A DNA stretch of 64,000 nucleotides from assembly GCA_964585475.1 (NCBI GenBank), contig CAZPDF010000002.1, positions 1,631 through 65,630 of the forward strand, given 5' to 3'. The DNA is from an uncultured Candidatus Saccharibacteria bacterium (GTDB taxonomy: Bacteria; Patescibacteriota; Minisyncoccia; Sungbacterales; HO2-52-23). The position numbers and the translations under genes were made by a program. This document shows, piece after piece, positions 828-1,736 of this stretch. The notes beneath the pieces are model-generated. The model was given only the letters and a program-made list of their open reading frames with translations, searched no databases and was not told the DNA's origin. Positions within the stretch are counted from its first letter, which is position 1, and each line of letters starts with the position of its first letter.

Positions 828-1736
828 ATGTCAACCCCAAAACTTTTTGACATTCATACTCATGTCCAATTTGCCGCGTTTAAAGACGACGCGGATTTGG
901 TTATTCAGCGGGCGCTCGATGCCGGAGTATGGATGGTGAATGTCGGGACCCAACGCGATACTTCGGCGCAGGCGATTGAGACAGCCAAGCGATATCCAGA
1001 AGGCGTATACGCAACCGTTGGCCTTCACCCGATTCATACCGAAGCGTCGTATCACGATGAAAAGGAGCTTGGCGGATCCCCGTCAAGTCATTCTGAGCGC
1101 AGCGAAGAATCTAAAGAGATCCTTCGCGTTGCTCAGGATGACGCCGTAAGCAATGATGGATTTACGTCGCACGGAGAAGAGTTCGACCACGAATACTACA
1201 AAAAACTGGCCGCAGACCCGAAAGTTGTTGCCATCGGGGAGTGTGGACTGGATTATTATCGGCTCGAGTCCGAAACCAAGGCGAAGCAAAAAGATGTTTT
1301 TATCCAGCAAATTGTTTTGAGCCGTGAAATTAAGAAACCGCTTATGATACACTGTCGGCAGGCCTTTGAAGATTTGATTAAGATTCTCCAAGCGACGGAT
1401 CATCGCCTCGAGATTGAGAATCCGGGGATTGTGCATTTTTTCAGCGGCACGAAAGATGATGCAAAAGTGCTTATGGATCTCGGATTTTCCTTTTCTTTCG
1501 GCGGTGTCATTACTTTTGCCCGGGATTATGATGAGGTCATAAAATTTATTCCACTTGATCGGATCACGCTTGAGACCGATGCCCCATACGTCGCGCCGGT
1601 TCCGTATAGAGGGAATCGGAATGAGCCCGCATATGTGACAGAAGTCGCAAAGAAGCTGGCTGAACTTAAGGGCTTATCTTTTGATGAAATTTGTGCTACA
1701 ACAAAAGAAAATGCGCTAAAGATATTTGGATTATGA
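828..1736 (+). CDS. tatD: TatD-family metal-dependent hydrolase/DNase
   Basis: MSTPKLFDIHTHVQFAAF... N-terminus with HxH motif, GLHP, ECGLDYY, ETDAPY and other TatD hallmarks; ATG at 828; contains an in-frame hairpin-element insertion at 1087-1142. Confidence 0.85.
   Translation: MSTPKLFDIHTHVQFAAFKDDADLVIQRALDAGVWMVNVGTQRDTSAQAIETAKRYPEGVYATVGLHPIHTEASYHDEKELGGSPSSHSERSEESKEILRVAQDDAVSNDGFTSHGEEFDHEYYKKLAADPKVVAIGECGLDYYRLESETKAKQKDVFIQQIVLSREIKKPLMIHCRQAFEDLIKILQATDHRLEIENPGIVHFFSGTKDDAKVLMDLGFSFSFGGVITFARDYDEVIKFIPLDRITLETDAPYVAPVPYRGNRNEPAYVTEVAKKLAELKGLSFDEICATTKENALKIFGL
1087..1142. repeat. In-frame palindromic hairpin element, family A (GTCATYCTGARCG...GCTCAGGATGAC), inside tatD
   Basis: gtcattctgagcgcagcgaagaatc-taaagag-atccttcgcgttgctcaggatgac is an imperfect inverted repeat. 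It encodes SHSERSEESKEILRVAQDD inside TatD. Alternate-frame ORFs read VILSAAKNLKRSFALLRMT. Related copies at 4878-4937 and 63802-63863. Confidence 0.75.

Follow-up and report, generated by a model that had tools for sequence, protein, structure and literature searches.

Introduction

Repetitive extragenic palindromic sequences (REPs) of the CGTC-tagged type carry a CGTC tag, often in the form TGTC, which is followed by a stem starting with an A-T and a T-A pair, and they mostly occur as inverted dimers (Di Nocera et al., 2013; PMC3733652). No dedicated transposase belongs to them, and copies that lie in frame within genes are known (PMC3733652). Both the Neisseria repeat dRS3 and two of the Rickettsia palindromic elements (RPEs), RPE-4 and RPE-6, have been assigned to this group, the latter two as members of CGTC-4 and CGTC-1, respectively (PMC3733652). 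dRS3 is also contained in the NTS repeat, the target of SsnA, a single-domain GIY-YIG nuclease (Chenal et al., 2025; PMC11893778). SsnA cuts only single-stranded DNA (ssDNA), next to the hairpin, and its own gene is bracketed by the repeats; the characterized Ssn enzymes bind the folded hairpin in ssDNA, and related SRM repeats accompany thousands of Ssn homologs (PMC11893778). For the way in which new copies arise, a domesticated repeat-gene-repeat cassette resembling an insertion sequence (IS) has been suggested, purely as a hypothesis (Chenal et al., PMC11893778). Here, we describe a repeat that we compare with these systems. We refer to it as family A, by which we mean the GTC-tagged hairpin unit and its dimer that are found in the genes tatD, leuS and cobO within a 64,000-nt stretch of a Candidatus Sungbacteria genome (contig CAZPDF010000002.1); 'the window' denotes this whole stretch in the following. 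The window is part of a 130-kb contig whose sequence is also present in ENA assembly ERZ27284378, and the affiliation of the genome with Candidatus Sungbacteria (Patescibacteria) is based on identical and near-identical proteins in public collections.

In our interpretation, each of the three features in the window is probably an inverted pair of a ~25-nt, GTC-tagged hairpin repeat, which is related to the repeats of the Ssn system, has multiplied in the Sungbacteria genome and persists in permissive loops of the host proteins. In the following, we describe the anatomy of the repeat, its association with genes for single-domain GIY-YIG proteins, its distribution and its fate within protein-coding genes.

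Results

Three copies of one element in the window

The pattern GTCATYCTGARCG-N(20-45)-CTCAGGATGAC has exactly three matches in the window, at 1087–1142 (56 nt), 4878–4937 (60 nt) and 63802–63864 (63 nt); none is expected by chance, as none of 100 dinucleotide-preserving shuffles of the window contains one. When a 13-nt arm pattern is used with two mismatches allowed, the six arms of these copies are recovered together with two chance-level matches, and looser searches yield no further copy or half-copy within the window. A nucleotide alignment of the three copies and their reverse complements has 34 invariant columns, and each copy folds as a single long hairpin (−24 to −33 kcal/mol, z = −3.3 to −7.7). 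An initial annotation of the window had reported the same palindrome in these three genes with the reading frames intact, which the pattern match, the open reading frames (ORFs) and the encoded peptides bear out. Its coordinates were exact for the first two copies and one base short for the third, which it ended at 63863.

The first inverted dimer (1087–1142) lies in frame in tatD (828–1736, plus strand), which encodes a TatD-family hydrolase of 302 aa (Pfam TatD_DNase on the public gene call). It consists of a left unit at 1087–1111 (GTCATTCTGAGCGCAGCGAAGAATC), a spacer at 1112–1117 and a right unit that is read on the minus strand from 1142 to 1118 (GTCATCCTGAGCAACGCGAAGGATC), and is translated within the TatD ORF as SHSERSEESKEILRVAQDD, spanning residues 87–105. 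The protein matches homologs in the PDB at E = 1e-50, with the insert region between their two aligned blocks. A minus-strand ORF at 1083–1436 terminates in ...VILSNAKDLFRFFAALRMT and is an alternate-frame reading of the same copy, just as the annotation had proposed for such ORFs.

The second dimer (4878–4937) is found in frame in leuS (1839–5462, plus strand; leucyl-tRNA synthetase, 1207 aa in the public call, tRNA-synt_1), where it occupies a variable linker after RFLERAWRF and is read as VILSEAKNLDRSFGLSPQDD. Its left unit (4878–4902) and spacer (4903–4908) are followed by a right unit (4937–4909, GTCATCCTGAGGGCTAAGCCCGAAGGATC) with an inner stem lengthened to GGGC/GCCC. The third dimer (63802–63864) is located in cobO, also termed cobA (63658–64000, plus strand), which encodes a cob(I)yrinic acid a,c-diamide adenosyltransferase of 192 aa (CobA_CobO_BtuR, PF02572). 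It is composed of a left unit at 63802–63826 (GTCATCCTGAACGAAGTGAAGGATC), a spacer at 63827–63831 and a right unit at 63864–63832 that carries a 15-nt inner insert; in the reading frame of CobO, which runs past the window end by 236 nt, it encodes a 21-residue peptide at residues 49–69. Just outside the window, the same genome contains a solitary, intergenic unit (L137 15322) and a fourth dimer within a 46-aa ORF that is cut by the contig end, which brings the count to five copies in ~81 kb.

Anatomy of the unit and the dimer

To define the anatomy, we used a one-genome-per-species scan, in which at least 120 stretches (L001–L120) with 125 dimers are among the matches listed. In these, GTCATYCTGA is followed by a short mini-hairpin rich in GC (GCGNAGC or a variant of it), by GAAGRATC, by a spacer without conserved sequence and then by the mirror image; the dimer is 47–69 nt long, 69 nt being the upper bound of the search pattern. 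The unit of ~25 nt can thus be written as (T/C)GTC, ATYCT, GA, a short GC stem capped by a GNA loop, GA, AGRAT and C; its GTC tag is unpaired and is followed by a basal stem of 5 bp, which a tandem G.A/A.G internal loop separates from a mini-hairpin. Among 244 arms, the base in front of GTC is mostly T (80%) or C (14%). We note that this base is A (AGTC) before all three intragenic left arms of the window (1086, 4877 and 63801), and that A is found in 2% of the 244 arms elsewhere.

In the 250 arms of the 120 listed loci, the variable positions Y6 and R22 of the same arm are complementary in 248 cases (C-G 142, T-A 106, T-G 2, C-A 0), whereas between the two arms of a dimer, the matching variable positions form Watson-Crick pairs in only 46 of 94. 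As these positions pair within the arm and not between the arms, the conserved object is the ~25-nt hairpin. The long imperfect palindrome of the initial annotation can thus be refined to an inverted pair of hairpins with the tags pointing outward. The inner stem covaries as well (GC/GC, AC/GT, GT/AC, GGC/GCC and GGGC/GCCC). For a formal analysis of covariation, 82 distinct units were picked only by GTCAT and by GA at positions 9–10 and 18–19; this selection replaces earlier fixed-register pair counts (right arms; all GTCAT sites), which had been diluted by longer inner stems and chance occurrences of GTCAT. In this set, 86.9% of the cells are paired, compared to 72.1% after shuffling, and 107 double-sided changes are observed where 35.8 are expected, with none of 500 shuffles reaching the observed value in either case. 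The covariation score is 0.452, as opposed to 0.009–0.173 when the partner is slid, and compensatory changes occur in five of the seven pairs, while pair 4–24 is A-T in 72 and pair 5–23 is T-A in 71 of the 82 units. At the level of translation, each arm has a TGA codon in one of its three frames; the two others yield the observed peptides, which start with VILSEAK(D/N)L... or (C/S)H(S/P)ERSE(E/G)S... and end with ...QDD.

These pairing data also bear on the idea that the element is a functional RNA hairpin, i.e. an mRNA stabilizer, pause site or terminator-like structure that is selected at the transcript level and whose position in genes reflects regulation. The long hairpin would be very stable as RNA from both strands (z = −3.3 to −7.7), the arms are conserved at third codon positions (see below), and CGTC and GTAG REPs have been proposed as RNA elements downstream of genes (Di Nocera et al., PMC3733652). 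Yet the covariation backs the hairpins within the arms, and half of the dimers are mismatched or wobble-paired between the arms at each variable position. Furthermore, no Rfam family covers the elements (whole window at the gathering threshold; positions 900–5200 at E up to 10), and the enzyme characterized for the related repeat shows no binding to RNA (PMC11893778). We consider a functional RNA improbable as the explanation of the element; it would be compatible with an Ssn-related hairpin and does not exclude it.

Association with single-domain GIY-YIG genes

At locus L059, family-A dimers enclose a small gene: a 94-aa ORF, of which 92 aa match the GIY-YIG domain (PF01541, 4e-17), is separated by 26 nt from a dimer upstream of its ATG and by 3 nt from a second dimer that follows its stop codon. 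This gene is missed by a crude GIY-YIG regular expression and recovered by tblastn. We then collected 80 metagenome loci encoding relatives of the L059 protein. A family-A unit is found at most 300 nt from the GIY-YIG gene in 42 of them, including all 19 loci with the closest relatives (at least 73% identity), and 21 of the 80 have units on both sides of the gene. The density of units amounts to 2.49 per kb near the gene and to 0.186 per kb further off, a 13-fold difference. The general form GTC-S5-GA-mini-GA-S5' is present at 76 of the 80 loci, compared to ~0.02 expected by a rough estimate; the basal stems at these loci include ATTTC, ATTCT, ATCCT, ATTCC and ATCTC, with non-family-A stems in the more distant relatives.

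The L059 protein is homologous to the product of an N. gonorrhoeae gene that lies amid 11 NTS repeats and which we take to be ssnA (46% identity over residues 4–88, E = 1e-17 in tblastn), and it is 65% identical to a protein encoded on a Planktothrix plasmid (WP_083616022.1), whose gene has three family-A units in its flanks. The latter ssn-like gene and its three units, on Planktothrix agardhii plasmid p1 (L220, NZ_LR882964.1 17356–20616), are situated between an MmeI-type restriction-modification gene and the DISARM gene drmA; this setting is a defense island.

The identity of the enclosed gene is also of relevance for the view that the dimers are REP doublets of the REPIN type, which would be mobilized in trans by an HUH-Y1 REP-associated tyrosine transposase (RAYT). 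The architecture is the same, namely two short hairpins in inverted orientation, each with a 5' tag that is unpaired, and many such copies in a genome (PMC3337134). The tag, however, is (T/C)GTC and not GT[AG]G, and the gene bracketed by the units encodes a GIY-YIG protein. Six RAYT/TIRYT queries gave no tblastn match, either in the window or in the ~0.96 Mb of loci that contain the element, and all-against-all clustering of 2981 ORFs from the 120 listed loci produced only housekeeping clusters and no recurrent transposase, at a length cut-off of 90 aa that hides the small GIY-YIG gene. Mobilization by a RAYT is thus very unlikely.

Distribution across bacteria

Among the at least 120 listed loci are representatives of the Nitrospirota, Chloroflexota, Bacillota, Bacteroidota, Cyanobacteriota, Planctomycetota, Gemmatimonadota, Armatimonadota and Elusimicrobiota, as well as of all proteobacterial classes, the Rickettsiales and several Patescibacteria, with megabase long-read contigs included. 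Family A is present in most bacterial phyla, chiefly outside long ORFs, and is not confined to small genomes. Cultured isolates account for just two of the 120 listed stretches (Geosporobacter subterraneus DSM 17957 and Neglectibacter caecimuris); the remainder are from metagenome-assembled genomes (MAGs). An artefact, such as an adaptor or a chimera, was considered and rejected, given that the element diverges with its host genes and is present in long-read chromosomes and in two isolate genomes.

The Sungbacteria genome stands apart in the placement of its copies. An open frame of at least 40 codons on both sides is found for three of its five copies, compared to nine of the 125 listed ones (Fisher p = 0.006); none of these nine belongs to the five other Patescibacteria loci listed. 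One family-A dimer in a Rickettsiales MAG (L016 185–246) is situated within a 960-codon open frame; it was from this order that in-frame palindromes were originally reported.

Spacers and flanks are similar among copies from the same genome, which indicates that the repeat is amplified within genomes. With only 16 stretches among 2.9 million viral contigs containing the dimer, phages do not suggest themselves as carriers, and a blastn search with the dimer consensus against 72,556 plasmids gave no match. Full-text literature searches with the DNA words and the encoded peptides returned only primer and acronym noise, and nothing relevant was found in the literature on in-frame palindromes in the candidate phyla radiation (CPR)/Patescibacteria.

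A short, non-coding, palindromic and dispersed element might also be a classical miniature inverted-repeat transposable element (MITE), that is, a deletion derivative of an IS with terminal inverted repeats that is moved by a DDE transposase. The lack of target-site duplications argues against this, as 74 of 88 copies have none and the lengths of direct repeats at the flanks equal the shuffled expectation. So do the size of the dimers, which at 47–69 nt are below that of typical MITEs, the existence of solitary 25-nt units and the absence of a transposase that recurs nearby in the listed loci. We regard a MITE as highly improbable.

Insertions in orthologous proteins

Around 40 of 120 TatD orthologs have a short loop of the type ELGDS.EAKGFTSRG without an insert, three have a family-A element at the same position, and others have unrelated repeat-derived peptides there. 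The closest ortholog (L221) shares the insertion with identical junctions (A/GTCAT...GATGAC/GCCGTAA, with slashes at the junctions). In another Sungbacteria lineage, the same TatD site is occupied by an unrelated, perfect palindrome with 17-bp arms, ACAACACCCTTACAAAC-TGGA-GTTTGTAAGGGTGTTGT (−22.5 kcal/mol; in L222, P0026, where it is inserted after ...ELGP, and also in L223). In CobO, the basal form has 173 aa and reads GEDFLA-KGLEPNFKL, and the element is confined to our query and its three closest relatives (76–83% identity). All four of these genes have the unusual 15-nt insert in the right arm, which points to one ancestral insertion. In LeuRS, the closest relative (P0241/L227) has the element at the same site and with the same lengthened right-arm stem, while most other relatives do not have it; in other LeuRS proteins of Patescibacteria, related units occupy either this linker or a second one.

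Judging from these alignments, the three segments are lineage-specific insertions and not ancestral protein sequence, in agreement with the initial annotation, and they are old enough to be common to relatives with host proteins that are 67–83% identical (for LeuRS, in the C-terminal region that was compared). The notion that the peptides are native loop segments which resemble the repeats by ancestry or convergence, for which a Neisseria LeuRS linker of similar length at the same place might be cited, is refuted by the TatD, CobO and LeuRS comparisons and has virtually no probability, given that segment-free orthologs are the majority, that 34 nucleotide columns are invariant among three unrelated hosts and that more than 100 genomes contain this DNA outside ORFs.

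The AlphaFold models of TatD and CobO have confident cores (mean pLDDT 79.8 and 80.3, respectively). In TatD, the model falls below a pLDDT of 50 at residues 77–92 and 96–111, around and within the insert at 87–105; in CobO, this is the case for residues 54–66, and the 10-residue blocks over 41–70 average 46–54 (insert at 49–69). The inserts in tatD and cobO are therefore predicted to sit in variable loops of low confidence, in line with the surface-loop location that had been anticipated. Because many orthologs hold further repeat-like peptides there, the TatD and CobO loops can be regarded as insertion hot spots. For the loops of TatD, CobO and LeuRS, repeat insertion thus represents a recurrent source of variation in Sungbacteria, with lineages differing in the palindrome at one and the same site.

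Nucleotide conservation within genes

When the window genes are compared with their orthologs, the arms of the elements show 69–88% identity at third codon positions (62 of 78 pooled), as opposed to 36–48% elsewhere in the same genes. The difference between the arms and the rest is significant in the two CobO comparisons tested (p = 0.002 and 0.0004); the three CobO comparisons all include the window sequence and are hence not independent. Moreover, the arms of orthologous insertions switch between the C-type and the T-type in a concerted manner. Such a switch entails one synonymous change (ATC/ATT) and one change in the protein (GAT/AAT, Asp/Asn, or CCT/TCT, Pro/Ser, in the other arm), and protein-level selection cannot account for coupled changes of this kind.

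The intragenic arms are conserved as nucleotide sequence beyond what passive tolerance explains. Of the initial picture of a selfish, tolerated repeat, the location in surface loops is retained, and the refinement is that the copies are conserved as nucleotide sequence, which goes beyond mere tolerance. The conservation may be due to selection on the DNA hairpin, to gene conversion from other copies or to repeated re-insertion. It provides a lead on whether the inserts are functional DNA sites.

Other features of the window and its surroundings

Directly downstream of cobO, just past the window end, follows a ComEC-type competence gene (DUF4131 and Competence domains, then a Lactamase_B gene; L137 10978–13433), and the same arrangement is seen at the orthologous locus L224; it is relevant here only if the repeats interact with transforming ssDNA. 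The LeuRS protein itself (1839–5462, plus strand) is unusual in that Pfam Abhydrolase_1/Ser_hydrolase and NUDIX domains are found inside the synthetase, with GHSLGS and GG.EEGE...REV.EETG motifs visible. The same gene also harbors members of a second, A-rich repeat family of the TTCAAAATTC type, whose occurrences in the window are 3277–3303, 4491–4517, 5147–5218, 44795–44866 and 52582–52707. This repeat is likewise read in frame in leuS (...EILNSKQIPNSKSQNLKQ...), and orthologs have similar NSKxQ peptides at the same linkers. Further along, the class II ribonucleotide reductase gene (58366–62244, plus strand) contains an intein with a LAGLIDADG homing endonuclease (Pfam Intein_splicing, LAGLIDADG_3), and a 300-nt direct repeat with 99% identity is found at 37555–37854 and 39623–39922, 2068 nt apart.

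Discussion

A possible history of the elements

We propose the following scenario for the inverted pairs of Ssn-related hairpins in the window. By analogy with the characterized enzymes, a cognate Ssn nuclease would recognize the folded family-A unit and cut it as ssDNA, and either the nuclease or a unit-gene-unit cassette would take part in the spread of the repeat. Units and dimers have multiplied in a Sungbacteria genome with little intergenic space, and the intragenic copies that persist combine a permissive surface loop with one of the two TGA-free frames.

Several observations weigh against this scenario. No GIY-YIG or ssn gene is found in the window and the 17 kb of adjoining contig (~81 kb; tblastn, E up to 5). 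The test for the association started from a single locus, L059, which was found by tblastn with GIY-YIG consensus sequences, and the real L059 protein replaced these queries afterwards. The family-A consensus units, of both the C-type and the T-type, fail the published SRM search sequence HGTCWYN(0-2)YYVSBRHN(0-5)WNVSBRGN(0-2)RNCYNB, which NTS and NTSvar pass; the match of family A is broken by its G.A tandem, and family A is therefore an uncatalogued variety of the known system. Its geometry departs from that of CGTC-1 to CGTC-4 too, which have stems of 8–9 bp and loops of 4–5 nt in place of the G.A tandem and the 3-nt loop. Finally, the long hairpin between the arms of a dimer is far more stable than the unit hairpin: nearest-neighbor DNA folding assigns a single unit −1.9 to −2.7 kcal/mol, which is not better than shuffles, so that it is covariation alone which speaks for the unit hairpin. 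Sheared G.A tandems and GNA triloops are not represented in the parameter set used. Such motifs are reportedly unusually stable in DNA, as described by Hirao and co-workers for d(GCGAAGC).

A more far-reaching scenario takes the conservation of the intragenic arms as its starting point. Either selection or continual copy correction might keep the units in tatD, leuS and cobO intact, so that they serve an Ssn-type nuclease as functional recognition sites in single strands. Core genes of a naturally competent, DNA-scavenging bacterium with a small genome would thereby be marked with cleavable hairpins that control recombination with incoming ssDNA, at the price of a 19–21-residue loop per protein. 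We think that this is rather unlikely.

Family A brings together three strands of research, namely the in-frame, protein-coding palindromes known as RPEs, the CGTC-tagged REPs without a transposase and the Ssn single-strand nucleases. As the published SRM motif misses the variety with a G.A tandem and a GNA mini-hairpin, censuses of Ssn-associated repeats likely undercount. In addition, gene callers will keep yielding spurious peptides of the type 'VILSEAKDL.../...SFASLRMT' from family-A repeats.

Comparison with known systems

With the REPIN/RAYT system (Bertels and Rainey, 2011), family A shares the inverted doublet of a tagged hairpin and a population of copies within the genome, but the tag is GTC instead of GTAG, and the partner is a GIY-YIG protein instead of an HUH-Y1 transposase.

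The resemblance to the RPEs, which the initial annotation had pointed out, holds in behavior: both are palindromes which, in a small genome, lie in frame in housekeeping genes that are unrelated to each other, at positions where the protein can still function (Ogata et al., 2000, 2002, via PMC10969869 and PMC3733652). It also holds in kind by the published characteristics of tag, stem start, inverted dimers and lack of an adjacent transposase (PMC3733652), and the tag and stem start are common to family A, RPE-4 and RPE-6. Compared by description and peptides, family A nevertheless is a different sequence family and is not restricted to one genus; RPE-1, for instance, measures ~150 bp. Since the peptides of RPE-4 and RPE-6 (VIPWLDHGI, VIPAKAGI and SFPRKRES) differ from VILSEAKNL, these elements and family A belong at most to the same superfamily.

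CGTC-1 to CGTC-4 have in common with family A the CGTC/TGTC tag, the A-T and T-A first pairs, the inverted dimers, the lack of an adjacent transposase and a presence in several phyla, and also the occasional in-frame intragenic copies that encode 20–30 residues beginning with VI. The hairpins have a similar span (nine stem positions), but a different geometry. The peptides differ as well, with VILSEAKNL...QDD in family A and VIPAKAGI, VIAGLDPAI or VIPWLDHGI in the CGTC-tagged REPs, and the host range of family A is far wider and includes Patescibacteria. In its tag, in the start of its stem, in its dimers and in having no transposase nearby, family A fits the superfamily of CGTC/TGTC-tagged REPs.

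Lastly, family A resembles the SRM/NTS repeats and their Ssn nucleases in being a multi-copy hairpin repeat with a 5' (C/T)GTC tag followed by AT, which brackets a GIY-YIG gene of ~90–100 aa on both sides, and the associated protein is homologous to that encoded by the NTS-flanked Neisseria gene. It differs in its fold, a 5-bp helix with a tandem G.A and a 2–4-bp mini-stem with a GNA loop, where NTS has a continuous stem of 8–9 bp. Family A usually takes the form of an inverted dimer, and it is intragenic in three of five copies in the Sungbacteria genome, compared to 2% reported for N. meningitidis. Family A is thus a new sequence variety, in a new host lineage, within a known and widespread class of repeats.

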